DNA of 64,000 nt from Clostridia bacterium (GTDB lineage Bacteria; Bacillota; Clostridia; TANB77; CAG-508): the NCBI GenBank assembly GCA_045643205.1, contig JAZUKI010000004.1:8331-72330 (forward strand), read 5' to 3'. The notes beneath the pieces were generated by a model that saw nothing but the letters and a program-made list of their open reading frames with translations, did not search any database and had not been told where the DNA came from. The translations under genes were made by a program, and so were the position numbers. How positions within the stretch are numbered: the first letter of the stretch is position 1; every line of letters begins with the position of its first letter. Below are positions 1-59,643 of the stretch, piece by piece.

Positions 1-339
1 CAAATGTTAGAAGCTGGTGCAAAATTATATGCAGTTAAATACACAGATCCAGGATTACAAGAAACAGCTACAGCTACATATTTACCATCTGGTGCTGTAA
101 TGCAATTAATTAGTACAAATCCTAATATTGTTCAAGATGCTAAAGTTAAGATTTATCAATACTATATCAAGAATGCAGATATGTATAGAAACAATGCTAA
201 CACAGGAATTCAAGCTGGACTAAATATGGTTGAAGCTGATGAAAGAACTGATGGAATCAGTGCAAATACAAGACAAGAAATTACTGCTACAAAAGATAAT
301 AGAGAAGAATATTTAGAGAATTTATCAGATATGGAATAA
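1..339 (+). CDS. Hypothetical protein, 3' end (5' truncated by the window edge); possibly the first gene of the Tad-like operon
   Basis: ORF runs in frame to the window start and ends at TAA 337-339. No motif recognised. Same strand as, and immediately upstream of, the ParA-like/CpaF genes. Confidence 0.35.
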   Translation, partial: QMLEAGAKLYAVKYTDPGLQETATATYLPSGAVMQLISTNPNIVQDAKVKIYQYYIKNADMYRNNANTGIQAGLNMVEADERTDGISANTRQEITATKDNREEYLENLSDME

Positions 340-415: not shown

Positions 416-1114
416 ATGAGGATTTTGGAACAAGTAGGTTTTTTCGGACCAATAGATAAAAAAGATTTAATGCTTAATATAGGTAGGATACTAACTGAAT
501 TTGGAAAGAAAGTTCTAATAGTTGATGGAACATATTTACAGAGACTAAGATATGTTGTTCCAAAAATCGGCGGAGGACAATCTGCTACTTATATTAGTGA
601 ATATTGCGGAATAGATGTTGCAGTTGGTTTTATGAATGCTCGTGGAATCATGCAATATCTAGGTAGCAATGATTTACCATATGATTATATATTTGTAGAT
701 ACAGATAATATTCAAACCTTTAATTCATATGGTTTGGCGTTTATGAAAAAATTGTTTTTTGTAACGTCATACGATAGATATGAAGTTGGTAAAGCGAAGG
801 AAGTATTTAGTTTCTTTCAACAACCAATAACAATGAAAAGAATCATTATTTCTTCAGATACATCTAAAGAACAACAAGAAGCATTAAATAGAGAATATGA
901 TGAAATTCCAAATATAAAATTTGAAAATCAAGATATTGTTTTTGCAGATACTAACCAAGATAGAGAATTTACATTAGAAAATCAATTAACAAAATCAATA
1001 TCATATAAACATTATACAACTGGTTATAAAGATGATTTAGAATACTTAACTGCTACTATTGCAGAAGGTAATGTAGATCAAACTTTTATAAAAAGAATAA
1101 TAAGACAATCATAA
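416..1114 (+). CDS. ParA/MinD-fold protein with degenerate Walker A (TadZ/CpaE-like pilus assembly protein, paralogue 1)
   Basis: 232 aa. N-terminus FFGPIDKKDLMLNIGRILTEFGKKVLIVDGT has MinD-like topology (P-loop position followed by a VLIVD strand) but no GKT/S. The AAAGGA ribosome-binding site is very close to the ATG, so the exact start is uncertain. Confidence 0.4.
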   Translation: MRILEQVGFFGPIDKKDLMLNIGRILTEFGKKVLIVDGTYLQRLRYVVPKIGGGQSATYISEYCGIDVAVGFMNARGIMQYLGSNDLPYDYIFVDTDNIQTFNSYGLAFMKKLFFVTSYDRYEVGKAKEVFSFFQQPITMKRIIISSDTSKEQQEALNREYDEIPNIKFENQDIVFADTNQDREFTLENQLTKSISYKHYTTGYKDDLEYLTATIAEGNVDQTFIKRIIRQS

Positions 1115-1180: not shown

Positions 1181-2032
1181 ATGTCAGTAATCACATTTTA
1201 CAATGAAGACAAAAACGAAGCTGGACAAACATTGGGTGCTGCCGCAATTGCATCAGTTTTTGGAATTGAACGTAACTATAAAATTTTACTTATATCAGTT
1301 GAACGTGAAGATTATAAAATGGAAGATGCATTTTTTAGACCTTCAAGAATTAACTTAACTAGTTTGTTCATGGGACAAAACACAGCTGCAACAGATGCTA
1401 CAAATGGTATTGAAGGATTAATGAGAATGTTCTCAAGTAATAGAGTTGATGCTGATGCTATCGCAAGTTATGCTCGTCCAGTATTAAAAGATAGACTTGA
1501 TGTATTACTACCATTAAAATCAAGAAGTATTGAAGAATTTCAAAATTCATCTAAGTTTTATTCACCAATAATTGATGCAGCAAATAAGTATTATGATTTA
1601 GTTTTAGTTGATATGTGTAAAGATGTATTACCAGAAACTAGAGAGACAATAATGAATTTATCAAGTTTAGTAGTTGTTGGATTAAATCAAAATTCTAATT
1701 CAATAAAAGAGTATATTAAACTTAAAGAAAAAGATGAAAAATATAGAAAAAACAATGTTATTACAGCATTGATGAAATACGATGATGCTTCAATGTTTAA
1801 TGCTAAGAACATGGCAAGAGAATTAAAAGAAAAAGACATACCATTATTAGTTCCTTATAATATTCATTTTACAGATGAATGTAGTGGAGGAAGAATATTA
1901 GATTATTTATTGAAGGCACACAGTTTACACTTTACAGATAGACCAGATGGATATTTCTATAGTACTGTTAAAGAGACAGTTGATAGAATTGATTACTTAA
2001 GAAAACAAGTTGATTATGGATTACGTACATAA
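1181..2032 (+). CDS. TadZ/CpaE-like ParA/MinD-family protein with degenerate Walker A (paralogue 2)
   Basis: 283 aa. ITFYNEDKNEAGQTLGAAAIASVFG...ILLISVE resembles the MinD deviant Walker A region with the Lys/Thr lost. RBS AAGGAAAGAG precedes the ATG. Sits directly upstream of the CpaF-like ATPase, as tadZ does in Tad loci. Confidence 0.45.
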   Translation: MSVITFYNEDKNEAGQTLGAAAIASVFGIERNYKILLISVEREDYKMEDAFFRPSRINLTSLFMGQNTAATDATNGIEGLMRMFSSNRVDADAIASYARPVLKDRLDVLLPLKSRSIEEFQNSSKFYSPIIDAANKYYDLVLVDMCKDVLPETRETIMNLSSLVVVGLNQNSNSIKEYIKLKEKDEKYRKNNVITALMKYDDASMFNAKNMARELKEKDIPLLVPYNIHFTDECSGGRILDYLLKAHSLHFTDRPDGYFYSTVKETVDRIDYLRKQVDYGLRT

Positions 2033-2199: not shown

Positions 2200-4119
2200 A
2201 TGTTAATTAATGCAATACTTATAATTGCTATAGTTGGTGTAGCTTTTTATCTTATACAAAGAAAGATAAAATCGAATCAATTAAAAGCAGAAAACGAAGG
2301 TAAAATTAACGACGTTCAAGTTGATGATAAAACATATACTTTAGATATGATGATTAAATTCGTTAAGAAAAGAATTGACGAAATAACAAAGGTTAACTTA
2401 TATGACCTTGGTTTATCTGAAGAAGAACTTAAGAGAAGAAAAGATAAAAAGTATGAATTAAAGAAAGCTTTAAAAGGCTGTACATATGGCGATGTTAATG
2501 ACAAGAAATATGTAAAGGAATTAATTTTTGATATTTTATCTAAAGAGTATGGAGTTGATGAAACTAATGTATCAAAGGCAATACCATTTGATATTCCTTC
2601 ATTATTAACACCACAAGATAAATATGACATCATTATTTATATGTATCAAAAAGAATTTGGCTATGAAGCATGGAATACTATAATGAAGAAATACAACTTA
2701 GCCACTTTAAAATTCGTAGATGGTGATACAAAACCTTGTTATGTTGTTACTCCAGAAGAAATTAGTGATATTTATATAAAAGAAAACTACACGTTATCAT
2801 TCCAAGATAAATTAATGGTTGTAGTTCAAAGAATATATCAATTATATAAAGGATATAGTTCAATCGACGAACTAAGAGATCAAAATATTGATGGTATTTC
2901 AGGTGGTGTATCTGGTTTACCAGAATCATTCTTAAGTCAGGTTGCTCAAACTGACGCAAACTATTTAACAAAAGTTATGGATCATAAAGTACCACGTTCT
3001 TGTGATTCTATTTGGATCATGTATCATGGTATTTCAATCCGTATGGCATTCTTATCATTTGGAAATGAATCAGAATTAAAGAGAGTTTGCCAAAATATTT
3101 ATAAATATAATAACCCAGGCCAGTTATCTGATGCCAATGGTTATAAGATTAATGAAATGAAAGATGGTTCCCGTGTCGTTGTTGTAAGACCAAGTTTCTC
3201 AGAATCATGGGGATTCTTCGTAAGAAAATTCGATGTTAAGAGAGCTACTCTTGATCAATTAATCAAATGTGATGGAAAAGATGAAGCTATTGCTTTATTA
3301 ACATACTTAGTAAAAGGTGCCAGAATTATATCACTTACTGGTGAGCAGGGTTGTGGTAAAACAACTATGTTAATGGCAATGATTGAAAATATTTATGAAA
3401 CAATGAACATTCGTGTTCAGGAAGTTGCATTCGAGTTACACTTAAGAAAAATTTACCCAACACGTAACATTTTATCTTTCCGTGAAACAGAAACAATTTC
3501 TGGACAAGAAGGTTTGGACGTTCAAAAGAAGACTGACGGTTCTGTTAATATTATCGGTGAGGTTGCAACTGACGAGGTTGCTTCTTGGATGATTCAAGCT
3601 GCACAAGTTGCATCTAAATTTACATTATTTACTCACCATGCTAAAACATTCCCAGACTTAATTACAGCTCTTCGTAACTCAATGTTAAGAACTGGTGTTT
3701 TCAACAACGAATTAGTTGCTGAAAAACAAGTTGTTTCAGTATTAAACTTTGATATTCACTTAGTTAAGGATTTCAGAGGAAATCGTTATATTGAGAGAGT
3801 TACAGAATGTGTACCTGTTGAAGACTTCAACAACTATACATTCGATCAAGATAAAGAAAAAACAATTGAAGGTAAATTTGAAAAATTTGCTGACAATGCT
3901 ACAAGATTCTTTACAAAACAAACAAACAAAGAAATATTTACATATAGAAATATTATGGAATATCAAGATGGAGGATATGTTTTAACTAATAGAATTACAG
4001 ATGCAAACTTACGTGGAATGGTTACAAACATGGACGACAATGACTCTGAAGGATTTAGAGAATTTGCATATAAATATTGGGGCATTAAACTAAATGATAG
4101 AGGAGAAATTATAAAATAA
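2200..4119 (+). CDS. CpaF/TadA-family (PulE/VirB11 superfamily) secretion ATPase with an N-terminal transmembrane anchor and about a 200-aa N-terminal extension
   Basis: 639 aa. Walker A LTGEQGCGKTTMLMAM, an Asp box, Walker B and His box LFTHHAKTFPD are typical of type II/IV secretion NTPases. Residues about 1-20 (LINAILIIAIVGVAFYLI) are hydrophobic. Confidence 0.75.
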   Translation: MLINAILIIAIVGVAFYLIQRKIKSNQLKAENEGKINDVQVDDKTYTLDMMIKFVKKRIDEITKVNLYDLGLSEEELKRRKDKKYELKKALKGCTYGDVNDKKYVKELIFDILSKEYGVDETNVSKAIPFDIPSLLTPQDKYDIIIYMYQKEFGYEAWNTIMKKYNLATLKFVDGDTKPCYVVTPEEISDIYIKENYTLSFQDKLMVVVQRIYQLYKGYSSIDELRDQNIDGISGGVSGLPESFLSQVAQTDANYLTKVMDHKVPRSCDSIWIMYHGISIRMAFLSFGNESELKRVCQNIYKYNNPGQLSDANGYKINEMKDGSRVVVVRPSFSESWGFFVRKFDVKRATLDQLIKCDGKDEAIALLTYLVKGARIISLTGEQGCGKTTMLMAMIENIYETMNIRVQEVAFELHLRKIYPTRNILSFRETETISGQEGLDVQKKTDGSVNIIGEVATDEVASWMIQAAQVASKFTLFTHHAKTFPDLITALRNSMLRTGVFNNELVAEKQVVSVLNFDIHLVKDFRGNRYIERVTECVPVEDFNNYTFDQDKEKTIEGKFEKFADNATRFFTKQTNKEIFTYRNIMEYQDGGYVLTNRITDANLRGMVTNMDDNDSEGFREFAYKYWGIKLNDRGEIIK

Positions 4120-4195: not shown

Positions 4196-6271
4196 ATGCC
4201 ATCAGGTTTTATATTTTTTATTGGAATAATGGCTGTTCTTATAATTGGAATAATAGTGCTTTTCATTTATCTACAAAAGAAAAGTAAAAATTCCGATGTT
4301 GCAAGAATACAAAAGTTGAGAAAAGGTACAGATACTAAGAAATTTTCTTCTGAAATTTTGTATCAAAAATTATATGTTTTCTATTTAAGATTTATCTTAA
4401 CAAGATTTTACTTACTAAAAATTCGTAGAAGACTAGAAATTAATAATGCTGATGATGAGTTTTCTGTTAGATTACAAGCAGCAAAAATTATTACTAAAGC
4501 ATTTGCAATTATAATTCCATTAACAATTGTAGTTATTATAATAACACATGAAAATTTCTTGTTAATGGCTATTATATTAATATTTGAATTATTTATAATA
4601 GATGCATTTACTGAAAATGCAGTTACAAAATTAGATAATGAATTACTAACTCAACAAGTTAATTTCTTTGCTGAAATGAGACATTCATATCACCAATGTA
4701 ATATGGTTGGAGAAGCAATATACTTAACAGCACAAGAAACAGATAATGTTGAAGTTGCAAGACAAGCTGAAAAAATATATGAAATTTTAAACTCAGCAGA
4801 TCCAGAAATAGAACTTGAAAAATATTATGATGTTGCACCTAATAACTATTTAAGAGAGTTTGCAGGATTATCATACTTAACCCAAGAATTTGGTGATAGA
4901 AGAATGGATAATAATGCATCATTATATTTAACAAACTTAAATAACATTTCACAAGAAATGCAACTTGAAATTTTAAAGAGAGATAAATTAAATTATGTTT
5001 TTCAATCTTTATCATTTATAGCAATTGCACCAATACTAATGCTTGAACCATTAAAAGCATGGGCAACAAGCAACTTTGGTTTTACTAAACCATTTTATAG
5101 TGGAAGTGGTGGATTGTTAATGCAAATATTAGTTATGATACTAACTTATGTTTGCTATATATTTGTTAGAAAAGTTAGAGATAGCGGTTCTACAAAATTA
5201 GTTCAGAACACACAAAACCCATGGCAAGAAAAATTATATAAATTTCCTATAGTGAAAAAAATTGTTGATTTAGTTATGCCAGCAAGGGGAACAAAAGATT
5301 ATATTAAGCTTGAAAGAAAGATGAAGGATGCTGGTTATAAAATTAAAACCAGATGGTTCTTTGTTAATAAATTAGTAATTTGTTTAGGGGCATTTATTAT
5401 CACATTATTAGTATGCTTTGGTATGCATATCATGCAAACAAATTTTGTTTATACTGATCCTACAGCAGATTACAACTTAATAAGTAACATGAATTCTAGT
5501 CAAGAGAAAAAAGCAATGGCTACTACATTACGCCAAAACAAAATTCTTGATCACTTCAAAGGAAAAGACAAATTAAAAGATACTGAAATATATGACTACA
5601 TGAAAAAACAAGCTGACTATGAAAGTATGCAAGATGATGATATATACAGAGAAATTGCTCAGATTAGAAGTAAATTAACTACATTAAATGGTGAATATTT
5701 AAAAGCTTATGAAGTTTTACTAGCATTTGCAATAGCAGCATTAGGATATGTTTTCCCTAATATTATGCTTAAGTTCCAAACTAAAATGAGACAAATGCAA
5801 ATGGAAGATGAAGTTATGTCATATCAAACAATTATCATGATGTTAATGAGAATTGAGAGAGTTGATGTTGAGATGATTCTTGAATGGCTTGAAAGATATT
5901 CAGATATATTTAAACCACAAATTAGCAAATGTTTGAATAACTATGAATCAGGTGCCTGGGAAGCACTTGATGAAATGAAAGATGAAATTACTTATGAACC
6001 TTTAATAAGAATTGTTGAAAGTTTACAAACAGCAGTTGAACAAGTTCCAATAAAAGAAGCATTTGAAGAACTTGATGCAGACAAAGATTATTATAAGGAT
6101 AAACGTAAAGAAACAAACGAAAGATTAATAGCTAGAAAAGGAAGAATTGGAAAGATTATTGGTTTCGCACCGATGGTTGTTGCATTCGTTGGATACTTAA
6201 TTGTTCCATTAGTATTAATTGGTATGGAATCAATGAACAGTACGTTCGATGAAATGTCATCAATGAACTAA
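4196..6271 (+). CDS. Polytopic inner-membrane protein, probably a fused TadB/TadC-like (T2SS F-family) platform
   Basis: 691 aa with about 7-8 predicted TM helices in two similar blocks separated by cytoplasmic domains. Lies between the secretion ATPase and the pilin-like genes. No sequence signature verified beyond topology. Confidence 0.45.
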   Translation: MPSGFIFFIGIMAVLIIGIIVLFIYLQKKSKNSDVARIQKLRKGTDTKKFSSEILYQKLYVFYLRFILTRFYLLKIRRRLEINNADDEFSVRLQAAKIITKAFAIIIPLTIVVIIITHENFLLMAIILIFELFIIDAFTENAVTKLDNELLTQQVNFFAEMRHSYHQCNMVGEAIYLTAQETDNVEVARQAEKIYEILNSADPEIELEKYYDVAPNNYLREFAGLSYLTQEFGDRRMDNNASLYLTNLNNISQEMQLEILKRDKLNYVFQSLSFIAIAPILMLEPLKAWATSNFGFTKPFYSGSGGLLMQILVMILTYVCYIFVRKVRDSGSTKLVQNTQNPWQEKLYKFPIVKKIVDLVMPARGTKDYIKLERKMKDAGYKIKTRWFFVNKLVICLGAFIITLLVCFGMHIMQTNFVYTDPTADYNLISNMNSSQEKKAMATTLRQNKILDHFKGKDKLKDTEIYDYMKKQADYESMQDDDIYREIAQIRSKLTTLNGEYLKAYEVLLAFAIAALGYVFPNIMLKFQTKMRQMQMEDEVMSYQTIIMMLMRIERVDVEMILEWLERYSDIFKPQISKCLNNYESGAWEALDEMKDEITYEPLIRIVESLQTAVEQVPIKEAFEELDADKDYYKDKRKETNERLIARKGRIGKIIGFAPMVVAFVGYLIVPLVLIGMESMNSTFDEMSSMN

Positions 6272-6309: not shown

Positions 6310-6906
6310 ATGGAAAATGCTTCTTTGGCCTTACGTATGGCTGGTGGTGTATTAATTGCATTATTAATAATTGGTGTTTTTGTATCAGTTATGGTAGTTA
6401 TTAATAACAATCAACAAAAGCAACAAGACGAAGAAGATTTGCGACAAGTTGAACAATTTAACGAATCCTATAAATCTTATGAAAATAGAATTGTTACTGG
6501 ATATCAAATGATTTCATTAACTAATAAAGCAATTGATTATAATGAGCGTATGTCAAAAGAATCTAAATATGCAGATTCAGCAACTTACTATACACCAATT
6601 CATATATATGTTATTTTAGAGTCTGAAGCCAATGGTGGAAGTGTAAAGCTTCCTGGTCAAAAGACTAAAAATGATAATAAAAATGCAAACAAAAATAATT
6701 ATATAGATTTAAATGATTATTATAAAAAATATTATTCTTCAGCATCTACAGAAACAAAGAATGAATTTAAAAATATGTATTTTAAATGGGAAAAAACAGA
6801 ACATGTTAGTCCAAATGCAAAAGATACAGAAGGAAAAAGTCTTGGTAATGTAGATGGAGTAGGAAGAGTATATGAAATGTATTTCAAAGAATATGTAAAA
6901 GATTAA
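6310..6906 (+). CDS. Pilin-like protein P1 (N-terminal MENAS...GG hydrophobic segment)
   Basis: 198 aa. N-terminus MENASLALRMAGGVLIALLIIGVFVSVMVV is followed by a polar extracellular region. Paralogous to P2, P4 and P5. RBS GAGGAAAGGA. Confidence 0.5.
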   Translation: MENASLALRMAGGVLIALLIIGVFVSVMVVINNNQQKQQDEEDLRQVEQFNESYKSYENRIVTGYQMISLTNKAIDYNERMSKESKYADSATYYTPIHIYVILESEANGGSVKLPGQKTKNDNKNANKNNYIDLNDYYKKYYSSASTETKNEFKNMYFKWEKTEHVSPNAKDTEGKSLGNVDGVGRVYEMYFKEYVKD

Positions 6907-6923
6907 TAAAGGAGAAGTAAAGC

Positions 6924-7676
6924 ATGGATGAAAACGCTTCTCAATCTCTATTAATGGTTGGGGGAATATTATTAGCAATTTCAGTATTAAGTTTCTTCGT
7001 ATATGCAATGGCATCATTCGGTGGATTTGCAAGTAATATGAATGCTCAAATCGGAGAAAGTGAAATACAGAAACATAATCAAAATTTTCAAAAATATGAA
7101 AGCAGATATAACATTACATTTCAAGAAATTGTTTCTACAATAAATTATGCAAAAGATTGGAATGATCAAAATGATTATTCATTTGATCAAGTTACGAATT
7201 CTAACAACGATAAAAAAGGCCAATATGTTGTAAATGTTAACATTATTGATGCTAAAGGCAATGTAATCCAAGTTTTTGGAAAAAATGCTAATAGTTTAAT
7301 TAATGAAGCAAATTATAAAGATAATCAAAAAATAAAAAACATTTTAAACAAAATGCTAAATGATTCAAATTATTCTGATTATTATTATGCTGTAAATGTT
7401 AAGGCAATTGATATTTTAAAAAAGAAAGAAAATAATTATTACGTTTTAAATGGACAATTTGGAGCTAAACATGGAACAATTGCTAAAAAAGATAAAGATA
7501 TAGGCATAAATTCAACAACAGGTTTAGTTGAAGAAATTTATTTTACAGCAGTATCAAAAAGTAATTATTCAAACATTGATCAATTTAAAGTTGTTAACAA
7601 ACAAGGAAAAGATGTAAATGTAGAATACAAAGTTAAGGATAGAGAATATTTTAGAATGGCTGAATTAGAGGGTTGA
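6924..7676 (+). CDS. Pilin-like protein P2 (MDENAS...GG N-terminus)
   Basis: 250 aa. MDENASQSLLMVGGILLAISVLSFFVY. Shares the post-TM motif Q-x-F-x-x-Y-x-x-Y-E-x-R with P1 (QFNESYKSYENR versus QNFQKYESRYN). RBS AAGGAGAAG. Confidence 0.5.
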   Translation: MDENASQSLLMVGGILLAISVLSFFVYAMASFGGFASNMNAQIGESEIQKHNQNFQKYESRYNITFQEIVSTINYAKDWNDQNDYSFDQVTNSNNDKKGQYVVNVNIIDAKGNVIQVFGKNANSLINEANYKDNQKIKNILNKMLNDSNYSDYYYAVNVKAIDILKKKENNYYVLNGQFGAKHGTIAKKDKDIGINSTTGLVEEIYFTAVSKSNYSNIDQFKVVNKQGKDVNVEYKVKDREYFRMAELEG

Positions 7677-7679
7677 TGA

Positions 7680-8114
7680 ATGAAAAAAAGTACACTAACA
7701 GTTATCATATTAATGTTAATAGTATTTGGTTTAGCAGTCTATTTTGCAATTAATTCTAGAATAGGATCAAACATAGCTTCAGAAGAAAATAGATATTATC
7801 AACAATTATTGAATAAAGAAATAACAGGAACAGAATTATCATCTGTTATAAATAAAGTTATAGATACAAATAAGAAAAATGAAATTTCTTTAGATGATAA
7901 AAAGTTATATAAAGAAAATGATAGTAACTCAATTATAATGGAAGTTACATTCAAATATGAAGATGGAACAAAAACACTCAGAGGAGAGAAAATCTACAAT
8001 GGTGAAATTAAAAATTTTATTTCATATTATGGAAATATCAAATTCAAATGTACTAAACTAGAATATCATGATTCAACTAAGAAAGTTAAGAAAATATATG
8101 TAGAAGAAATATAA
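7680..8114 (+). CDS. Small membrane-anchored protein P3 (pilin/pseudopilin-like, different N-terminus)
   Basis: 144 aa. MKKSTLTVIILMLIVFGLAVYFAI is a TM segment followed by a polar domain. Start is 4 nt after the P2 stop, so translational coupling is likely. Confidence 0.4.
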   Translation: MKKSTLTVIILMLIVFGLAVYFAINSRIGSNIASEENRYYQQLLNKEITGTELSSVINKVIDTNKKNEISLDDKKLYKENDSNSIIMEVTFKYEDGTKTLRGEKIYNGEIKNFISYYGNIKFKCTKLEYHDSTKKVKKIYVEEI

Positions 8115-8282
8115 TTCAAAAAGAATATATATGAAATATAATATGATTCAAAAGATAGAAAATATAAAACACAAAAGATTTAGATAAACAAAAGTGCAGA
8201 AAAACATAAATTATATTATATTTATTACTTAGTTTTTAAAATTTTAAACATAAATTAATTTATTTTTTAGGAGGAAAATTTT

Positions 8283-8834
8283 ATGGAAAATGCATCAAAA
8301 GCCCTAATTATAGTAGGTGCCGTACTTATTGCAATTTTATTAATCGGTTTTGGAGTTATGATTTTAAATAACTCAACAAGTCAGGTTAGTCCTGATGCTT
8401 TGAACTCACAAGCAGCTCAAACACACAATGCACAATTTAATAATTACACAGGAAAAACAATTACAGCTCAACAAGTTAAAACATTAATGAATGTTATTAC
8501 AACAAATAATGTAACAGGTAAAACAGCAGACACACCACAAAAAGTATATGTTTACTATACACCAGCATCAGCAACAACATCAACATCAACATCAGATAAA
8601 GAAGCGATTAAAGAAGGATATAATGATCCAGCAAGAATTTCTGCAGCTGTAAGAAATGGTTACACATATACAGTTGAAATTAATAACTCAAATGCAGTTG
8701 ATGTTACAGACAAAGAAGTAACAGATGAAAGCACAGCACCAAGTGATAAAAATGATACATCAGCAGCAAGTTATTATTCAAATGGTTATATAAGAGTTAT
8801 TTGTATTACAGAAAATTCAAGAAGTAGCAAATAA
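8283..8834 (+). CDS. Pilin-like protein P4 (MENAS...VGAVLIA N-terminus)
   Basis: 183 aa. MENASKALIIVGAVLIAILLIGFGVMIL, with a Thr/Ser-rich C-terminal half. RBS AGGAGGAAAA. Confidence 0.5.
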   Translation: MENASKALIIVGAVLIAILLIGFGVMILNNSTSQVSPDALNSQAAQTHNAQFNNYTGKTITAQQVKTLMNVITTNNVTGKTADTPQKVYVYYTPASATTSTSTSDKEAIKEGYNDPARISAAVRNGYTYTVEINNSNAVDVTDKEVTDESTAPSDKNDTSAASYYSNGYIRVICITENSRSSK

Positions 8835-8881
8835 TTAACTAGTATATTGTACTAATATCCATAAAATTAGGAGAAATATAA

Positions 8882-9757
8882 ATGGAGAATGCATCAGAAG
8901 CTTTAAAAATGGCAGGCGCTATGCTAATTTTTGTAGTGGCCTTAACCATCACAATAATTTCATTTACTGCCGCAAGACAAGCTTCTGATAGCATTGTCAG
9001 TACTTATGGCCAGTTAACTACTTTTTATGATTATGAACTATACAAAAATACAGGTTCATATAGAGAAGTAAAATCTGATGAGATAATAGCTAATTTGTAT
9101 TCATATTATCAAACCAACAATACAATTTTGTTTTATTATTTAAAAGATGGAACTTATAATACAAAGAGTAAAACCTTTTCAACAGATGCTGTCATTAATA
9201 AGATGACTTTATATTATACTCCTACATCAGACACGGTAACACAAGCAGATAAAAACCAAGGAAGGCTTTCAAACTTAAGAAAATCATTCTTAAGAAATAC
9301 AACTCTTGGTGATGATGATACACGTGCAATTTATGGATTAGACATTCAAGATGAAACAATAACTAGAAATGAAGCCTGGAAGGGAACAGCAGGAGATGCT
9401 AAAATCTTTATAGATTGTTTAGTTTCAGGAACTACATATGTAAATAACAATGTAAGTAAATCAAATTATAATGATATTAATCGTACATATTATGATAATA
9501 AAGGAACATTAAATATTATATTTCAATATCAAGGAATATTAAAAAAGCCATTGAATCAAGCTAGTGATTGTTTATTCATTGAAAGAGATGGAGAATATAT
9601 TTCTTCAGCGAAAGATGAAGATACAAGAAATGATGAATGGAAAAGAGTTGTCGCAAATTCAACCGAGGAGTTGAATGATGAAGTTTTAGAAAATAATACT
9701 GCTACAACAAAGAAAGTAATACAGTATATTTATATACCAAATGAAAAGTGTATATAA
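8882..9757 (+). CDS. Pilin-like protein P5 (MENAS...AGAMLIF N-terminus)
   Basis: 291 aa. MENASEALKMAGAMLIFVVALTITIISF. RBS AGGAGAAAT. Confidence 0.5.
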   Translation: MENASEALKMAGAMLIFVVALTITIISFTAARQASDSIVSTYGQLTTFYDYELYKNTGSYREVKSDEIIANLYSYYQTNNTILFYYLKDGTYNTKSKTFSTDAVINKMTLYYTPTSDTVTQADKNQGRLSNLRKSFLRNTTLGDDDTRAIYGLDIQDETITRNEAWKGTAGDAKIFIDCLVSGTTYVNNNVSKSNYNDINRTYYDNKGTLNIIFQYQGILKKPLNQASDCLFIERDGEYISSAKDEDTRNDEWKRVVANSTEELNDEVLENNTATTKKVIQYIYIPNEKCI

Positions 9758-9934: not shown

Positions 9935-10459
9935 ATGAATGATACAGTAATGTCAATCGTTGCAATCTTTTTGGCAGCAATTTTAATGTTTATATTTCCA
10001 CTAATGTCTACTGCAGATAGAAGTGATGATATAGCACAACAAGCTGTACAAACACAAACAACTGAGTTTGTTGATAATATTAGAACTACTGGAAAAATAA
10101 CTCAAGATAGTTATAATAGTTTTGCAACAACTATTGCTGGAACTGGTAATTCTTTTGATATAGAGCTTGAAGTTCAAATACTAGATGATAATGCTAGAAA
10201 GAAAACAGCTCAAGCATCAGCATCTAAAGTTGGTGAAAATAGTTATTATAGTGAGTATACATCACAAATCCAAGAACATATGGATAAAAATGGTGGAACT
10301 TATATTTTAAAAGAAGGTGATATTGTATCTTGTACAGTTAGAAATACAAGCCAAACAATGTCTCAAATGTTAAAGAATTTCTTTTACCAAGTAACAGGTA
10401 ATAATTCATATAATATTTCTGGACAACACTCAGGAATTGTTAATGTTAATGGAAATTAA
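9935..10459 (+). CDS. Membrane-anchored pilin/pseudopilin-like protein P6
   Basis: 174 aa. MNDTVMSIVAIFLAAILMFIFPLM is a TM segment followed by a polar domain. Own promoter and followed by a terminator. Confidence 0.4.
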   Translation: MNDTVMSIVAIFLAAILMFIFPLMSTADRSDDIAQQAVQTQTTEFVDNIRTTGKITQDSYNSFATTIAGTGNSFDIELEVQILDDNARKKTAQASASKVGENSYYSEYTSQIQEHMDKNGGTYILKEGDIVSCTVRNTSQTMSQMLKNFFYQVTGNNSYNISGQHSGIVNVNGN

Positions 10460-10564: not shown

Positions 10565-11581
10565 ATGAAGGATTCAAAAATTTCTTTTAAGTTAATTGAT
10601 TTTATAATTCTTAATATAGCAATAGTTGCAATAATTGCAGTTATTGTTTTTTGTAATGTAAATAAATTACATAATAATTCAAATCCTAGCAGTATTTCAA
10701 AAGAAATTATTCAAGAAGACTTAAAAAAATCAATAGAAAATAGATATTACTATAATCAATTAGATGCTAATGGTCAAAAAATGTACAATACATTTTTAAG
10801 TAACACTGAAAAATTTAGAGCAGGAAACGAATACATATCAATTGATATAAATGAAGAAAGTGCAGGGGATAGTTTTCAAGCAGCATGGGATGCATTTTCT
10901 GTAGATAGACCAGAGTATTTTTACATAGATACTAATAAACTTTCACTATTAACTAATGTTAAAACTAACATTTTTAATAATAAAGAATATGAATATAAGC
11001 TTCAACCTAAGAACGGAGAAACATATTTTGAAAAAGAATTTCCAACAAAAGAGGATGTTGATTTTGCAAATTCACAATTAGAAACAATTACTAAATCAAT
11101 AATAGATCAAGCAAATAGCAAATCAACTAGATATGAGAAAGTAAAGTTTATACATGACTATCTAGTAGATAACATTTCTTATTCAAAAGATGAAAATGAA
11201 GCTAGTGCTGATACAATATATGGAGCATTGATTAATAAAGTTTGTGTTTGCGAAGGATATGCAAAATCATTCAAATATTTATTAGATAAATTAGAAATAC
11301 CATGTATTATTGTTTTTGGAAACGGAACCAACTCAGAGGGAAAACAAGAATATCATTCTTGGAACTATGTGAAAATGGAAGATGATAAATGGTATGCTGT
11401 TGATGTTACATGGGATGATCCTATTGTAGTTGGCGGAGGAAAAGTAACAACAGCAATTAAGTATAAATATTTTTTAGTTGGAACAGAAATTAATTCTAAT
11501 CATACTTTAGAATCAGATATCTCAGGAACAGGTCAAAATTTTAAATATCCTGAGTTAAGTTTTAGTAACTATAGTAAATAA
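10565..11581 (+). CDS. Membrane-anchored transglutaminase-like cysteine protease-fold protein
   Basis: 338 aa. N-terminal TM segment FIILNIAIVAIIAVIVF. Cys-His-Asp triad context CVCEGYAKSF ... EYHSWNYV ... WYAVDVTWDD matches the transglutaminase-like core. Confidence 0.7.
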   Translation: MKDSKISFKLIDFIILNIAIVAIIAVIVFCNVNKLHNNSNPSSISKEIIQEDLKKSIENRYYYNQLDANGQKMYNTFLSNTEKFRAGNEYISIDINEESAGDSFQAAWDAFSVDRPEYFYIDTNKLSLLTNVKTNIFNNKEYEYKLQPKNGETYFEKEFPTKEDVDFANSQLETITKSIIDQANSKSTRYEKVKFIHDYLVDNISYSKDENEASADTIYGALINKVCVCEGYAKSFKYLLDKLEIPCIIVFGNGTNSEGKQEYHSWNYVKMEDDKWYAVDVTWDDPIVVGGGKVTTAIKYKYFLVGTEINSNHTLESDISGTGQNFKYPELSFSNYSK

Positions 11582-11609: not shown

Positions 11610-11886
11610 TTAAGTATAGAGAATAATAAAAAAATAGGAGCAATCTAAATTGCTCCTATTTTTATGTTGTTTATTTGTTATCGCTGTTATTGTTATTATT
11701 GCTATTATTATAGTTGTTATAGCCATGGTTGTTATGGTTATAATTGTTATATCCATGATTATTATGATTATAATAATTATTTTTATAATTGTTATGGCCA
11801 TGGTAGTTATTATAATTATTGTGATAATGATAATTACTATTCTTAGTATTATTGTTATTATTGTTATTATTATTATTTTCAACTGA
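11610..11886. repeat. Low-complexity (ATT/ATA/GTT)n microsatellite-like tract, open in several frames on both strands
   Basis: About 270 nt made almost only of att/gtt/ata/atg triplets. The ORF track shows stop-free frames on both strands. It encodes the Asn/Tyr/His-rich tail of the murC ORF. Confidence 0.7.
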
Positions 11887-13512
11887 TTCTTCTGATTGAG
11901 ATTCAGTTACATTGTTTGATGGAGTAGAGCTAAATTGTTCTAATGAATCAAAGTTCTCTATTTTTGTTTCTTCAATTGATGAACATGTTTCACAGTCATT
12001 TTCTTGAGTACAAGCACATTTATTTGTACATCCATTTGCACATTCGTTTTCACAATGATCTTCACATTCATTTTCGCAGTGATCTTCACAATGACATTCA
12101 AAAGTAGAAGAGCATTCAGCAGAGTCTTGTTCACTTTTAACAAGTTCATGTCCAACTTTAGTGATTGAACCAGCACCTTGTGTAATGATGATATCATCTG
12201 GTTTTGCATTTCTTCTAACAAAATCAACAATGTTTTCTAAATCTTTAATATAGTATGCTTTTCTACCAAGAGCTTCGATTTTATCAATAATATCTTTTGA
12301 AGATACTTCGTTATTATCAATTTCTCTAGCAGCATATATATCAGTAACAATAATGTTATCAAAGTTTGTTAAAACATTAGCAAAGTCATCTAGCAATGCT
12401 TTTGTTCTACTAAATGTATGTGGTTGGAAAAGAATCCATGAATGATTATATTTTCTCTTTTTAACTGCATTTGCAACAGCTAAAATTTCTGTAGGATGAT
12501 GTCCATAATCATCAAAAACATTTGCACCATTAACTTTTCCTAAATATTGAAAACGTCTTTCAGCACCACCATATGTTTTTAATGTATTTTTTACTGAGTT
12601 TTTATCAACTTCAAATTGACTACAAACAGCGATACAAGCTAATGCATCATAAATATTATGTTCTCCAGGAACACCTAGTTTGAATGTTTTATAAAAAGTA
12701 TTGTTATGATAAACATCAAATGAAGCACATCCGTTTACATCATAAGAAATATTTTTTGCTACAAAGTTTGCATTATTTGATTTTATACTAAATGAAATAC
12801 TCTTTGCTTTAGTATGAGAAGATAGTCCATGACAATTCTCATCATCAGCATTGTAAACCAATATTCCATCATCAGGTAATAATTTAACGTATTCTACGAA
12901 AGCTGCTTTAATATTGTCCATTGTTTTATAGTAATCTAAGTGATCATTATCAATATTTAAGATAACTTCAACTTTAGGGAAGAAATCTAGGAAACTTGCA
13001 GAATATTCGCAAGCTTCAATGATAAAATATTCACTTTCACCAACTCTATAATTTCCACCAATTGAATCTAAAACAGCGCCAATTTGAATTGTTGGATCTT
13101 TTTTGGCATCTAAGAAACATTGAGCAATCATTGAAGTAGTAGTCGATTTTCCATGAGTTCCAGAAACACAAATAGAATTTCTGAAAACTCTAGTAAGTTC
13201 ACCCATGATTTCTTTTCTTTCAATTGTAGGAATACCTAATTCTTTAGCTCTAACTAATTCAGGATCTTCTGGTTTTATAGCTGCAGAATAAATAACTAAA
13301 TCAGATCTATCAACATTCATAGGATTATGACCTATATAAACTGGGATATCATTTTCAATTAATTGATTTGTAATGTCAGATTCGGTTGAATCAGAGCCAG
13401 TTACATTAAAATCCCACTTTTTTAAAATTTCGGCAATACCACTCATAGATGAACCACCGATACCTATCATATGTATATTTTTATATTGTTTTAGTTCTTG
13501 TAAATTTGGCAT
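11671..13512 (-). CDS. murC: UDP-N-acetylmuramate--L-alanine ligase MurC with an unusual C-terminal extension of about 150 aa (Cys/His/Glu-rich, then Asn/Tyr/His-rich)
   Basis: N-terminus MPNLQELKQYKNIHMIGIGGSSMSGIAEIL (the MurC GIGG nucleotide motif). Start chosen at ATG 13510-13512, preceded by GGAGAT. The MurC domain ends near ...ITKVGHELVK, and the frame stays open for about 150 more aa. Confidence 0.85.
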   Translation of the reverse strand: MPNLQELKQYKNIHMIGIGGSSMSGIAEILKKWDFNVTGSDSTESDITNQLIENDIPVYIGHNPMNVDRSDLVIYSAAIKPEDPELVRAKELGIPTIERKEIMGELTRVFRNSICVSGTHGKSTTTSMIAQCFLDAKKDPTIQIGAVLDSIGGNYRVGESEYFIIEACEYSASFLDFFPKVEVILNIDNDHLDYYKTMDNIKAAFVEYVKLLPDDGILVYNADDENCHGLSSHTKAKSISFSIKSNNANFVAKNISYDVNGCASFDVYHNNTFYKTFKLGVPGEHNIYDALACIAVCSQFEVDKNSVKNTLKTYGGAERRFQYLGKVNGANVFDDYGHHPTEILAVANAVKKRKYNHSWILFQPHTFSRTKALLDDFANVLTNFDNIIVTDIYAAREIDNNEVSSKDIIDKIEALGRKAYYIKDLENIVDFVRRNAKPDDIIITQGAGSITKVGHELVKSEQDSAECSSTFECHCEDHCENECEDHCENECANGCTNKCACTQENDCETCSSIEETKIENFDSLEQFSSTPSNNVTESQSEESVENNNNNNNNNNTKNSNYHYHNNYNNYHGHNNYKNNYYNHNNHGYNNYNHNNHGYNNYNNSNNNNNSDNK

Positions 13513-13850
13513 AAAACAAAAATCTCCTTTACATATAGTCAAGTTACAAACTCTATTATACTACAAAACGGGCAAAAAAACAACAAATTAAGTAAAATAG
13601 AGAGGTAGAGTAAAGACAAAAATTTTGTCTTAAAAGGAACAAAAAGACACAGAAAAAAACATAAAAAAGCGAGTAGAAATTTTGAGCAAAATATTAATCA
13701 AAAAAATATGAAAAAACATGTAAAAAAATGCAAATAATTGTAAAAAACTATTGAAAATTTTATTTATTTATTATAAAAATTATACAGGTAAAGTTTTATC
13801 GCGTATATAGTACGTAAGTACAATTAAAACTTTGGAAGGAGACTTTTTAA

Positions 13851-14147
13851 ATGGAAATCACAGACGTAAGATTAAGAAAATTAAGCACAGACAACAAGCT
13901 TAAAGCTGTTGCATCTGTAACATTCGACAACGAATTCGTTGTACACGAAATCAAAGTTATCGAAAATCCTGAAGGAGTATTATTTATTGCTATGCCTAGC
14001 AGAAAAATTGGAACAACTGGAGAACACAGAGATGTAGCTCATCCAATTAACCCAGCTGCTAGAGAAAAGATCCAAAATGCAATCTTAGAAGTATACAATA
14101 ATACACCAGAGCCAGAAGCTAAAGCTGAAGAAACACCAGCTGAATAA
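13851..14147 (+). CDS. spoVG: Septation protein SpoVG
   Basis: 98 aa. [11 protein letters not shown]...[19 protein letters not shown]...FIAMPSRK is a near-canonical SpoVG sequence. RBS GGAAGGAG. Confidence 0.9.
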
Positions 14148-18776: not shown

Positions 18777-19454
18777 TTGTTTCCAAAATCTTGCGGAATA
18801 TGTGGAAAGATGGGCGATACAATATGTTCTAATTGTGTTGCTAAAATGGAAAAATATAGAAATAACAATACCACAGATAATCAAATAAAAGTGCTTGAAA
18901 GTACTATAAATATGCACTTTTTATACAAATATGAAGGATTGGTCAGAAAAATCTTGTTAAAATACAAATTTGATGACCAATCTTATTTGTTTTTTACGAT
19001 AATTTTTCTCATATTAAATAGCCCTGAAACGTGTATTTTTATAAGACATTATGATATAATCATGCCAGTTCCTTTGCACAAAAAAAGACACTTAGAAAGA
19101 GGGTATAACCAAACTGAATTGGTGGCAAAAAATCTAGGTGAAAAATTAAAAATTGATGTAAATGGAAAAATACTGAAAAAGAATAAGAATATAAAACCTC
19201 AGAGTCAAAAAAATGGCGAAGATCGATTAAAAGATGTAATCGGAATATATGAATTAGATTCTAGGTATAGTTCTGAAATTATTGGAAAGAGCGTGCTAAT
19301 AGTAGATGATATCTATACTACAGGAAGTACATGTAGAGAATGTGCAAAAATGCTTCTTCAAGGAGGGGCAAAAGAGGTTGGAATATTTTGTATTGCAAAA
19401 GATTATTTAAGTATGAAAAATATAGATAAAAGGAGCCAAGATGCCAAAGGTTAG
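18777..19454 (+). CDS. comFC: ComF family protein (ComFC-type phosphoribosyltransferase-fold competence protein)
   Basis: 225 aa. N-terminal Cys cluster CGICGK...CSNC and the PRTase motif VLIVDDIYTTGST. TTG start per the ORF track. Confidence 0.7.
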   Translation: MFPKSCGICGKMGDTICSNCVAKMEKYRNNNTTDNQIKVLESTINMHFLYKYEGLVRKILLKYKFDDQSYLFFTIIFLILNSPETCIFIRHYDIIMPVPLHKKRHLERGYNQTELVAKNLGEKLKIDVNGKILKKNKNIKPQSQKNGEDRLKDVIGIYELDSRYSSEIIGKSVLIVDDIYTTGSTCRECAKMLLQGGAKEVGIFCIAKDYLSMKNIDKRSQDAKG

Positions 19455-57315: not shown

Positions 57316-57362
57316 TACAAGAATAAAATAAAAACAAAAGAAAATAACAAGGAAGGAATAAT

Positions 57363-57698: not shown

Positions 57699-57700
57699 TT

Positions 57701-58273: not shown

Positions 58274-58284
58274 GAGTATAAGAA

Positions 58285-59630: not shown

Positions 59631-59643
59631 TTAGGAGAAAAAC

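Follow-up and report, generated by a model that had tools for sequence, protein, structure and literature searches.

The 64-kb window (the whole stretch of 64,000 nucleotides that was analysed) opens with a run of genes, all on the forward strand, that is the conserved 'pilus gene cluster' of TANB77 encoding proteins 927 to 938 (Kim et al., Nat Commun 2024, PMC11680825): gene order, sizes and transmembrane (TM) pattern match, including a TadA/CpaF protein with one TM helix (TMH), an 8-TMH TadC+TadB fusion and single-TMH small proteins. The first cluster gene (927; 4..339), cut by the window start, encodes the C-terminal end of a CpaB/RcpC-like (SAF-domain) protein; homologues occupy the equivalent position in 77 loci, and the orthologue of locus L002 is 31-46% identical to SAF-domain proteins of the plasmid loci described below. 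It is followed by a gene for a TadZ-like protein (928; 416..1114), kept in this position in 80 loci, which gave no match in a Pfam search and tblastn matches to the plasmid loci (E 1e-9 to 7e-16), and whose TadZ structural homology was reported by Kim et al. (PMC11680825). Next come a ParA/CpaE-like gene (929; 1181..2032), conserved in 81 loci, with weak NCBIfam matches (CpaE_hom_Actino among them) and a plasmid orthologue annotated as ParA, a gene for a CpaF/TadA-like secretion ATPase of 639 aa (930; 2200..4119) and one for a putative fused TadC+TadB platform of 691 aa with 8 TM segments (931; 4196..6271).

Directly behind the ATPase and the platform, four ORFs open with M(D)ENAS and continue into a hydrophobic helix. 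These MENA-type, pilin-like proteins of 183-291 aa are P1 (198 aa, 932; 6310-6906), P2 (250 aa, 933; 6924-7676), P4 (183 aa, 935; 8283-8834) and P5 (291 aa, 936; 8882-9757). P3 (144 aa, 934; 7680..8114) has the head module of P1, P2 and P4 without the MENA cap; it begins with MKK and a hydrophobic stretch of the signal-peptide or anchor type, and a signal peptide was predicted for its equivalent (PMC11680825). P6 (174 aa, 937; 9935..10459) is conserved across TANB77 (median identity 54-60%) with a start of the form M-[GSN]-D-[TS]..AIFLAAxLMFxFPLMS, and 16 of 40 orthologues match DUF4320 weakly (best E 0.016). The operon's last gene in the window lineage encodes a membrane-anchored transglutaminase-core (Cys-protease fold) protein (10565..11581; Pfam Transglut_core E 2.2e-15), which is found in only 10 of 84 loci and takes the place of P7, the tested 'pilin 938' of Kim et al., present in 64; the two proteins show no similarity, and no P7 homologue was found anywhere in the 64-kb window. 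A bidirectional terminator-like hairpin (11630..11663; 15-bp stem, T-runs on both strands) closes the operon and separates it from the convergent murC gene. A ComFC-like gene lies further along the window (18777-19454).

Proteins 932-937 had been called 'pilin-like' from context and topology only, and the pilus itself had been inferred from context, with no filament observed; the same paper makes no mention of a prepilin, peptidase, TadV, leader, cleavage, motif or N-terminal (Kim et al. 2024, PMC11680825). The N-termini of the four MENA-type proteins, MENASLALRMAGGVLIA (P1), MDENASQSLLMVGGILLA (P2), MENASKALIIVGAVLIA (P4) and MENASEALKMAGAMLIF (P5), are exactly those quoted in the preliminary description of this DNA. 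A ribosome-binding site (Shine-Dalgarno) of the AGGAGG or GGAG type lies 6-9 nt to the 5' side of every ATG, and an in-frame stop is met 1-5 codons upstream, which leaves no possibility of an earlier start or a leader. The primary product carries a 6-residue polar cap (Met-Glu-Asn-Ala-Ser/Thr-Lys), then Ala-Leu, then a hydrophobic helix of about 22 residues, with a one-residue insertion in the MDENAS start of P2.

This arrangement recurs far beyond chance expectation: among 83 related loci and the window, most carry three to five MENA-type ORFs in a fixed order, and the Met of MEN is the start of 258 of 266 longest ORFs. Canonical forms of the architecture E-E-o-E-E-P6 (E, MENA-type gene; o, P3) were found in 43 loci, in agreement with proteins 927-938 of Kim et al., while 10 loci have a third MENA-type gene after P3 (E E o E E E P6). 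Over 257 distinct sequences from the 83 loci, the cap is nearly invariant (M1 100%, E2 97% with D in 3%, N3 99%, A4 96%), as is the start of the helix (A7 97% with G in 2%, L8 96%, A11 91%, L15 93%), and position 6 is Lys in 72%. Codons at the conserved positions vary synonymously (GAA 155/GAG 88; GCA/GCT/GCG; TTA/CTA/TTG/CTT), indicating that selection acts at the protein level. A search with the P4-family profile at E <= 1e-3 matched 6465 clusters (50% identity), of which the best 150 all align from residue 1. P4 has the most uniform N-terminus of the set (MENASKALIIAG in 83 copies) and is the smallest paralogue (median 143 aa across loci); it is preceded by the longest intergenic spacer (8115-8282) and an AGGAGG site, and locus L082 has two adjoining copies with a P4-type N-terminus. 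Identity between P4 heads is 30-37%.

Profile comparisons bore out that the four proteins are paralogues with a common N-terminus. With hhalign, P4 matched P1 over columns 1-95 (99.7%, E 2.6e-25), P5 over the N-terminal 46 columns only (96.7%, E 4e-10) and P3 over columns 43-84 only (92.8%, E 4e-7), and P6 was unrelated to P4; by BLASTP, P2 matched P1 (E 1e-6) and P4 (E 1.5e-4) across its N-terminal 70-80 residues. Judged from these comparisons, two modules are newly recognised here, an N-terminal one common to P1, P2, P4 and P5 and a post-helix one of about 45 residues common to P1-P4, and such sharing among P1-P5 follows the pattern expected of pilins. The post-helix module contains a block that the preliminary description had ascribed to P1 and P2 as Q-x-F-x-x-Y-x-x-Y-E-x-R; its correct form is N-x-x-[FY]-x-x-Y-E-x-R. 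While the first 25 residues or so are invariant, the heads of the four paralogues differ, that of P5 being unrelated, and evolve fast (29-42% identity); a conserved N-terminal helix is joined to differing heads as in type IV pilins. AF2 models (pLDDT 84 and 87) gave a helix over residues 2-32 followed by an alpha/beta head, but a variable Ser/Thr/Asn-rich linker (residues ~30-36) interrupts the helix, which means that the classical continuous alpha-1 'lollipop' is not reproduced and counts against a pilin reading; no solved structure matched the predicted head fold.

The ATPase scored 30.2 bits against Pfam T2SSE (cut-off 24.9), and its best solved relative is CpaF (E 2.6e-7); it has an N-terminal TM helix, starting at residue 1, and about 270 aa make up an additional N-domain. 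Sequence identity of the ATPase is 73-97% across the best 80 of 593 confirmed species-genome matches, from Clostridia/Clostridium MAGs (CAG:245, CAG:780 and Ca. Merdicola among them) that we take to belong to TANB77. Within the same genomes, identity is 82% for the motor and 69% for Era, and RecO and HPF are likewise less conserved than the motor. The platform has a median identity of 55% to other loci and no Pfam or PDB sequence match, its TadC/TadB structural homology being that reported by Kim et al. (PMC11680825). That the platform, TadZ-like and CpaE-like proteins gave no sequence-level family match here counts against the reading that we favor below.

Like Tad/Flp (type IVc) systems, the locus combines a motor of the CpaF family with two platform domains, ParA proteins of the TadZ/CpaE type and a SAF protein resembling CpaB, and small single-helix subunits follow in a row downstream. 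It differs in that its ATPase has a membrane tether and some 200 aa more, in that TadB and TadC are fused, in that no TadV was found in or near (±10 kb) the loci, and in that its subunits have folded heads and lengths of 140-290 aa compared with about 50-80 aa for Flp, a size difference already pointed out in the preliminary description. As had also been noted there, neither the G/FTLxE nor the G/xxxxEY motif is present, and none of P1-P6 scored above cut-off with the pilin models of Pfam/NCBIfam (N_methyl, Flp, TadE, ComG). Since no TadE/TadF/TadG or competence pseudopilin HMM was matched, the proposal of a distinct pilin or pseudopilin signal class holds to this extent; the family is nevertheless not unknown, because the cluster and the 'pilin-like' label were already published (Kim et al. 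2024, PMC11680825). The ComG pseudopilus of Firmicutes, a monoderm system, is similar in that genes for an ATPase and a platform are followed by those for single-helix subunits, one of them major and several minor, but ComG pilins carry the canonical KG/FTLxE that is cut by ComC, and the only ComG trace here is a sub-threshold match of P3 to ComGF (E 0.019 and 15 bits, where the cut-off is 80). Archaeal class III signal peptides, the substrates of PibD, FlaK and EppA, have the same very short polar N-terminus and small residue before the helix, and archaeal-type pilins often have Lys/Arg at -2 and lack Glu5, as MENA proteins do; archaeal leaders are, however, basic and variable, whereas the MENA cap is acidic or neutral and invariant, and no archaeal-type peptidase gene was found near the loci. 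Tad systems are reportedly derived from archaeal Epd-like pili (Denise et al. 2019).

The whole system is also collinear on 35 large plasmids of cultivable Firmicutes, relatives that are new and absent from Kim et al. On these 35 plasmids, 'hypothetical proteins' align with 80-97% of the length of the platform at 23-36% identity, and P6 is 29-31% identical to the third small gene in 5 of 6 plasmid loci. A full homologous system lies on pTHECO01, a complete plasmid of 149 kb, where it adjoins conjugation modules (T4CP, relaxase, Tcp-like genes). All six plasmid homologues of the MENA proteins keep [A/G]-[L/I] after 5-8 polar residues, as in MGENGRKG/LFMAV of C. beijerinckii; Glu2 is not conserved among them (starts such as MSTNASKAL or MNNASSAL), and the Butyrivibrio homologue has the charge arrangement E7/R10, as in the P5-type swap.

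The cap may be either kept or removed. Lacking an ordinary prepilin leader, the MENA proteins may be assembled without the usual prepilin peptidase, and we somewhat prefer retention of the cap, with peptidase-independent assembly, over removal of MENASKA. From one paralogue or species to the next, residues 1-4 stay invariant even though their codons turn over synonymously, which is not the behavior of discarded leaders. The positive charge shifts from position 6 to 9 when position 6 is acidic (P5 orthologues have Asp/Glu at 6 and Lys at 9, a swap seen in 43 sequences), and P3, P6 and P7 are without any comparable Gly/Ala site. The polytopic membrane ORFs (110-330 aa, at least 4 predicted TM segments) within ±10 kb in the 83 loci and the window included no Peptidase_A24, and pTHECO01 carries none either.

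A less likely but still tangible alternative is that M-E-N-A-S-K-A is a cryptic 7-residue class III leader cut between Ala7 and Leu8 by an A24 peptidase (TadV, ComC or PilD type) whose gene would lie at another place in the genome, leaving a mature pilin that starts LIIAGAIL... and lacks Glu5, like many archaeal pilins. A class III signal peptide (SPIII) is defined by a leader that 'invariably ends with Gly or Ala', with Glu5 'often, but not always' present. Ala or Gly occupies position 7 in 99% of copies and likewise in the six plasmid homologues, always followed by Leu/Ile and usually with Lys at -2, which formally fits this loosest rule; the preliminary description, right about the classical motifs, was thus too strong in stating that there is no recognisable cleavage motif. 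The leader of gonococcal PilE, MNTLQKG/F, is of similar length and also has Lys at -2. The lack of Glu2 conservation outside TANB77 and the extra residue that P2 of the window tolerates ahead of the motif likewise argue against a retained cap, and related clostridial tad-like loci in C. kluyveri, C. cellulolyticum, C. bolteae, C. sp. L2-50 and D. hafniense, compared here by their published description, carry tadV while lacking recognisable prepilins (Imam et al. 2011, PMC3244431). Against such cleavage stand the cap invariance, the absence of an A24 gene near the 83 loci and on pTHECO01, the unmatched pilin HMMs and the lack of a comparable site in P3, P6 and P7; it would also leave a charge in the filament core, considering that P5 orthologues and the Butyrivibrio homologue are acidic at -2 and have Lys/Arg at +2.

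As for the whole, the gene order runs CpaB-like, TadZ-like, CpaE-like, membrane-tethered CpaF-like ATPase, fused platform of ~690 aa, small single-helix proteins, and it is reasonably likely that a divergent filament machine of the Tad type (type IVc-like) has P1, P2, P4 and P5 as its subunits. An unlikely alternative is that these make up a short pseudopilus or piston embedded in the membrane, or a complex anchored at the surface, rather than a long adhesive pilus; the MENA proteins would then be type II anchors recruited by a Tad-like motor, and the structure would serve secretion, the uptake of DNA or contact between mating pairs, comparable to T2SS or ComG. Motor conservation above that of housekeeping genes and order-wide synteny do suggest a core role in the cell more than an accessory adhesin island, and the conjugation modules beside the plasmid relatives, the ComFC-like gene in the window and a flexible helix-head linker unlike the rigid pilin alpha-1 also speak for this alternative. 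Yet several paralogues with hypervariable heads, sometimes with an extra putative major copy, are typical of exposed filaments under diversifying selection, and no conserved gene for a secretion substrate or DNA receptor was found in the locus. It is very improbable that the N-termini are ordinary Sec signal peptides, serving for targeting only and removed with the hydrophobic segment by signal peptidase I to release soluble or wall-bound heads, since P3, with its MKK start, predicted signal peptide and common head module, is the one protein that fits, whereas the MENA segment lacks a basic n-region and a conserved AxA site, has a hydrophobic stretch (~22 residues) too long for an h-region, is invariant from Met1 unlike targeting peptides, and is called a TM helix by DeepTMHMM (Kim et al., PMC11680825).

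In the favored reading of a Tad-type filament machine, the major subunit is probably P4, with P1, P2 and P5 as probable minor ones, and P3 and P6 would be accessory subunits. The MENA proteins would insert as signal anchors with the N-terminus inside and the C-terminus outside, and the conserved helix would act as an assembly module taken up by the platform; if the cap is retained, the Glu2/Lys6 pair would neutralise the tail. The ATPase would then polymerise the helices into a surface filament or a short pseudopilus with the variable heads exposed, and such a machine would be a hallmark that passes vertically within the uncultured gut order TANB77.

Five open reading frames (ORFs) lie on one strand between positions 6310 and 9757 of the window, and a sixth, P6, comes next at 9935-10459. 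Four of them are pilin-like genes that we call MENA-type, namely P1 (6310-6906), P2 (6924-7676), P4 (8283-8834) and P5 (8882-9757), and their products begin with MENASLALRMAGG, MDENASQSLLMVGG, MENASKALIIVGA and MENASEALKMAGA, respectively; the neighbouring small genes P3 (7680-8114) and P6 encode proteins that start with MKKSTL and MNDTVMS. These translations bear out the shared M(D)ENAS N-terminus that had been read from the DNA in the preliminary description. Each of P1 to P6 has a single N-terminal hydrophobic segment. A site of the AGGAGG or GGAG type precedes every MENA-type ATG by 6-9 nt, and the reading frame is closed by a stop just 1-5 codons before that ATG, so that a longer N-terminus cannot be encoded. 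In these proteins, the helix is preceded by 6-7 polar residues and no more (Met-Glu-Asn-Ala-Ser-Lys, hereafter the cap), and the hydrophobic stretch, running from residue 7/8 to about 28, has the length of an alpha-1N helix (20-25 residues).

In profile comparisons using hhalign, P1 to P5 show the organization of a modular family. P4 and P1 align (99.7%, E 2.6e-25) over 95 columns comprising the cap, the helix and a post-helix module with N-x-x-F/Y-x-x-Y, P4 and P3 share the post-helix module only (92.8%, E 4e-7), P4 and P5 share the N-terminal 46 columns only (96.7%, E 4e-10), and P4 and P6 are unrelated, with no aligned region. The proposed paralogy of P1, P2, P4 and P5 is in line with the P4-P1 and P4-P5 matches and with the MENA-type start of P2. 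A single assembly helix carrying differing heads characterises the major and minor pilins of type IV systems. The strongest candidate for the major subunit is P4, since its N-terminus is the most uniform, its size the smallest, its upstream spacer the longest and its ribosome-binding site the strongest, and since 10 loci have a third MENA-type gene after P3 and two adjacent copies in one locus (L082) have the P4-type N-terminus. Promoter predictions for P4 were given no weight, because the number of sites was at expectation: the scan was uninformative at 27% GC, with 89 sites found versus 88 expected.

An AlphaFold2 model of P4 (74-sequence alignment; pLDDT 84.4) predicts a helix at residues 2-32 (pLDDT 88-97), a break at 33-36, a second helix at 37-53 and a mixed alpha/beta head thereafter, and the head modelled alone (residues 29-183) gave a pLDDT of 87.1 and a pTM of 0.83. 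A check for a pilin-like alpha/beta fold had been advised in the preliminary description; the predicted head is mixed alpha/beta, and the MENA heads have no 'lollipop' fold with structural similarity to solved pilins. Among PDB sequences, nothing matched the profiles of P4, P5, P6 or P7, the last being the 'pilin 938' family that is present in other loci.

Upstream of the P genes and on the same strand, we found the 3' end of a gene of CpaB type (4-339), a pair of ParA-like genes (416-1114 and 1181-2032) and the gene for a 639-aa ATPase with an N-terminal transmembrane (TM) helix (2200-4119); a 691-aa protein with 8 TM segments and no family match is encoded at 4196-6271. The ATPase scores 30.2 bits against Pfam T2SSE (cut-off 24.9), and its closest PDB sequence is the Tad motor CpaF (E 2.6e-7, residues 277-542). 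The 691-aa protein, our candidate platform, has the right position and topology for TadB/TadC and matches no Pfam model or PDB sequence; each of its halves is structurally homologous to TadC/TadB according to Kim et al. (PMC11680825). In 83 related loci and in 6 plasmid loci, the small genes come directly after those for the CpaF-like ATPase and the 8-TM platform. By analogy, the system would work like a Tad (type IVc) machine, with a TadA/CpaF-family ATPase present and no TadV found in or within ±10 kb of the loci studied. A SpoIIIA-like or VirB11-type system was rejected, since no component matches and the nearest relative of the ATPase is CpaF.

The cluster is a known one, since it matches the 'pilus gene cluster exclusively conserved in TANB77' described by Kim et al. 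in 2024 (PMC11680825), which encodes proteins 927-938: 927 is CpaB, 928 TadZ, 929 CpaE, 930 TadA/CpaF (one TM helix), 931 TadC+TadB (eight TM helices), 932-937 are labelled 'pilin-like', and 938 is given as a larger minor pilin with partial structural similarity to TadE/PilV. A few species of CAG-492 lack the cluster. The pilin label of 932-937 was based on context, size and topology, the authors' sequence and structure searches having been uninformative. Gene order and sizes in the window agree with Table 1 of that study, except that a gene for a transglutaminase-core protein replaces 938. The locus is thus already published, but the N-terminal feature of the MENA proteins is not described in that paper, where the terms prepilin, peptidase, TadV, leader, cleavage, motif and N-terminal do not occur. 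The nearest genomes are Clostridia metagenome-assembled genomes, including CAG:245, CAG:780 and Ca. Merdicola, and an IMG/VR scan for outgroup loci returned just two contigs, both TANB77-like.

For comparison, we used 80 species-level genome loci fetched via the neighbouring ATPase (the best 80 of 593 matches) and three more. Database searches uncovered a large family: a P4 search gave 377 relatives, all unannotated, and nearly every full-length one among the 120 listed begins with MENASKALII, while an exhaustive P4 profile search reached 6465 clusters at 50% identity, with alignment from residue 1 in the best 150 of these 6465. The commonest order after the platform, seen in 33 loci, is MENA, MENA, other, MENA, MENA, P6, and 10 further loci have an additional MENA copy. 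Over 257 distinct MENA-type sequences, Met1 is conserved in 100%, Glu2 in 97% (Asp in 3%), Asn3 in 99%, Ala4 in 96%, Ala7 in 97% (Gly in 2%), Leu8 in 96%, Ala11 in 91% and Leu15 in 93%, and 258 of 266 longest ORFs begin precisely at the Met of MEN. Since the codons of these positions vary synonymously (GAA/GAG, GCA/GCT/GCG, TTA/CTA/TTG/CTT), the conservation is at the protein level, and the pattern is under strong selection. Gene conversion or an RNA element as its source was rejected on account of the same synonymous variation.

Median identities to one reference locus (L028), computed over the same 21 genomes, were 82% for the ATPase, 67% for the platform, 69% for Era, 60% for RecO, 58% for HPF and 29-42% for P1-P5 and P7; the initial ~25 residues of the MENA proteins are invariant despite this 29-42% overall identity. 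These values point to a tightly constrained motor and to fast-evolving subunit heads that would be exposed. The neighbourhood of the cluster is constant across TANB77 (era/recO/hpf ... murC/spoVG). Since the ATPase is more conserved than Era, RecO and HPF and since the chromosomal neighbourhood is kept, the cluster behaves as a core, vertically inherited trait and not as a mobile tad island.

The claimed absence of classical pilin motifs stood up to Pfam and NCBIfam: none of P1-P6 passes an N_methyl, Flp_Fap, TadE or ComG model, even at E <= 1, and only sub-threshold noise was seen. Flp/Fap pilins (PF04964) are about 50-80 aa long with a G|xxxxEY site, whereas MENA proteins have 183-291 aa here and 130-400 aa in relatives and lack both the EY motif and a match to the HMM. 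The TadE/TadF/TadG family (PF07811), which has a G|xxxxE-type site, matched neither P1-P6 nor any of 26 P7 orthologues, and the sole trace of ComG, whose pseudopilins carry a KG|FTLxE prepilin motif, was P3 against ComGF (E 0.019, 15.2 bits versus a cut-off of 80). MENA proteins fail all of these Flp, TadE and ComG family tests. As for the type IV pilin rule for class III signal peptides (SPIII; IPR012902), Ala7 (97%, Gly in 2%) followed by Leu8 (96%) formally fits -1/+1. Relative to Ala7|Leu8, Glu/Asp at +5 is absent, position 12 being Gly or Ala, and the primary product has its conserved acidic residue at position 2 (Glu2). Several type IV pilin tests are failed as well: signature, Glu5, pilin-like head and linked peptidase.

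Type IV filaments are defined by SPIII prepilins and a dedicated prepilin peptidase, which reviews list as core to every system. A co-occurring dedicated peptidase had been raised in the preliminary description, and we collected polytopic membrane ORFs (110-330 aa, with 4 or more predicted TM segments) from the ±10-kb surroundings of the 83 loci and from the 64-kb window and ran a non-redundant set of 21 against Pfam. No Peptidase_A24 (the prepilin peptidase family, with TadV, ComC and PilD types) was found among them. The transglutaminase-core protein was rejected as a dedicated processing enzyme, since just 10 of the 84 loci encode it. The complete 149-kb plasmid pTHECO01, read end to end, has no annotated or ORF-detectable A24 peptidase either.

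This plasmid is one of many carrying relatives of the system. In a tblastn search of PLSDB, the ATPase was matched over its full length, with 35-55% identity, on large plasmids from many cultivable Firmicutes, among them Thermobacillus, Cohnella, Paenibacillus, Cytobacillus, Alkalihalophilus pseudofirmus OF4, Sporosarcina, Lysinibacillus sphaericus (pBsph), Butyrivibrio proteoclasticus and Clostridium beijerinckii, and the fused platform was found on 35 plasmids, annotated as hypothetical in every case. Most of the six plasmid loci that we read start with a SAF/CpaB-like gene, followed by TadZ-like, ParA-like, long ATPase and ~680-aa platform genes, after which come a gene for a protein of 137-161 aa, another small gene and homologues of P6 and P7. 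In most of the six, significant homologues were obtained for CpaB, TadZ, CpaE, CpaF, the platform, P6 and P7. The C. beijerinckii locus deviates, with one gene between the SAF gene and the ATPase gene and a cell-wall hydrolase gene in place of the second small gene. P4 is homologous to the first small protein of 5 of the 6 loci (E 7.5e-10 to 8.5e-3, with Z set to 1e6), and 4 of these 5 align from residue 1-4; the L. sphaericus protein was not recovered in the same search. The N-termini of the first small proteins vary (MSTNASKALYFGA, MNNASSALKVAAG, MDSVTKAIIFGA, MESPVVKAIILAV, MGENGRKGLFMAV, MGGSLSEGLRTVFA), and all six consist of just 5-8 polar residues, Ala/Gly, Leu/Ile and then the helix. 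Glu2 is not universal among them, and 4 of 6 have an acid/base pair at i,i+3 or i,i+4 spacing.

On pTHECO01, the whole system sits beside a Tcp-like conjugation module and a coupling protein (T4CP). After the P7 homologue, pTHECO01 (L086), pBsph (L087), pBpOF4-01 (L093) and pPPM1a (L094) encode an S-layer-homology or stalk-domain protein, and a giant DUF5704 protein (1000-1200 aa) is also encoded downstream of it in these Bacillales clusters; a GGDEF protein follows the cluster in pTHECO01 and in the C. beijerinckii plasmid. These downstream genes could provide a filament-associated adhesin and c-di-GMP control. Platform homologues with 23-25% identity over 71-81% of the length were also seen on ~134-143-kb plasmids of Clostridium argentinense and C. 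botulinum (H50-H59). Literature searches on DUF4320, PYCH_01220 and plasmid Tad-like systems gave nothing relevant.

The MENA proteins are subunits without a conventional leader that have a common assembly-type helix and whose genes lie behind a CpaF-type motor and a platform. We infer that they would insert N-in/C-out and would be polymerised into a Tad-like filament or pseudopilus. As to the fate of the cap, we lean slightly towards its retention on the subunits. Residues 1-4 are invariant, unlike discarded leaders, and an acidic position 6 goes with a positive charge at position 9 in 43 of 47 sequences, which are mostly P5 orthologues and represent few independent events; a Butyrivibrio homologue has the same type of charge arrangement (E7/R10). 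P3, P6 (M-G/S/N-D-T...) and P7 (MK-L/I-Q...) are without any Gly/Ala site, and the failure to find a linked peptidase near the 83 loci, in the window or on pTHECO01 also argues for retention. Alternatively, MENASKA|L would act as a cryptic class III signal seven residues long. Position 7 is Ala/Gly in 99% of copies and the equivalent residue is so in every plasmid homologue, Leu or Ile comes next and Lys is usually at -2, in agreement with the SPIII rule, by which the leader 'invariably ends with Gly or Ala' and Glu5 is optional; moreover, clostridial tad-like loci without recognisable prepilins still carry tadV (Imam et al. 2011, PMC3244431). Sequence alone does not decide the matter, and we slightly favour a retained cap over cleavage at MENASKA|L.

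A bolder possibility, which we advance tentatively and think rather less probable than its negation, is that a Firmicutes Tad-like clade makes ready-made leaderless subunits that are polymerised without any prepilin peptidase, a retained charge-balanced cap replacing the processed N-terminus and Glu5. In TANB77, the genes of such a clade would lie on the chromosome, and in Paenibacillus, Lysinibacillus, Clostridium, Butyrivibrio and others they would lie on plasmids.

Other genes in and around the window were noted. The membrane-anchored transglutaminase-core protein (Cys-protease fold; 10565-11581) ends the operon in just 10 of 84 loci (the window, L001, L005, L006, L007, L009, L011, L022, L025 and L031); in the window, its gene holds the place of P7/'pilin 938', found in 64 other loci. 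P7/938, the protein tested in mice by Kim et al. (PMC11680825), is absent from the window, and the lineage of the window lacks it altogether, as indicated by the transglutaminase-core gene in its place. P6 is the best-conserved small protein (54-60% identity); its 40 orthologues start with M-[G/S/N]-D-[T/S], and it may also expose an acidic second residue after Met removal. Weak DUF4320 matches were obtained for 16 of the 40 (best E 0.016). The murC ORF (11671-13542, minus strand) encodes three normal Mur-ligase domains up to residue 458 and then a ~165-aa tail (11671-12167) of Cys/His/Glu-rich repeats (ECHCEDHCENECEDHCENECANGCTNKCAC...) followed by poly-Asn/His/Tyr low complexity, which is missing from the 425-aa orthologue of L002; Ile-rich ORFs opposite this tail (11650-11886) are artefacts of the repeat. 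A second surface-fibre cluster, of the sortase type and unrelated to the Tad-like one, occupies 56266-61833, with a DUF7601 protein that has an N-terminal signal and a C-terminal TM segment (56266-57315), an S26 signal peptidase (57695-58273), a sortase (58878-59630) and a 729-aa protein with a signal and a C-terminal anchor (59644-61833). A RecD2-like helicase gene (16323-18614) followed by a gene for a ComFC-like protein with a double zinc ribbon and a phosphoribosyltransferase domain (18777-19454) suggests a DNA-uptake pathway; with no ComG pseudopilus genes in the window, the Tad-like machine may serve competence. TANB77 members appear to be spore formers, given the spore-related genes around the locus: a CotH kinase-like protein (41822-43213) and SpoVG (13851-14147) in the window, and SpoVAC (L006, 3344-3868) and SpoIVB (L002, 13505-14374) in relatives.

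In the literature that we searched, there is no account of the leaderless and invariant cap, of the modular paralogy, of the missing peptidase or of the plasmid relatives in cultivable hosts. TANB77 abundance and its 'pilin-like' genes correlate with the response to checkpoint immunotherapy, and one protein of the cluster was reported to act via TLR4 (Kim et al., PMC11680825). TANB77 is clinically relevant through this link and the bacteria are uncultured; cultivable hosts of the plasmid systems, such as P. polymyxa M1 (pPPM1a), L. sphaericus C3-41 (pBsph), A. pseudofirmus OF4 and C. beijerinckii, open a route to testing assembly, processing and structure. The MENA N-terminus would be either a class III signal shorter and more atypical than any other known or the mark of the first peptidase-independent member of the superfamily, and a peptidase-free clade, if real, would be the first type IV filament family to break the definition by 'SPIII plus peptidase'.
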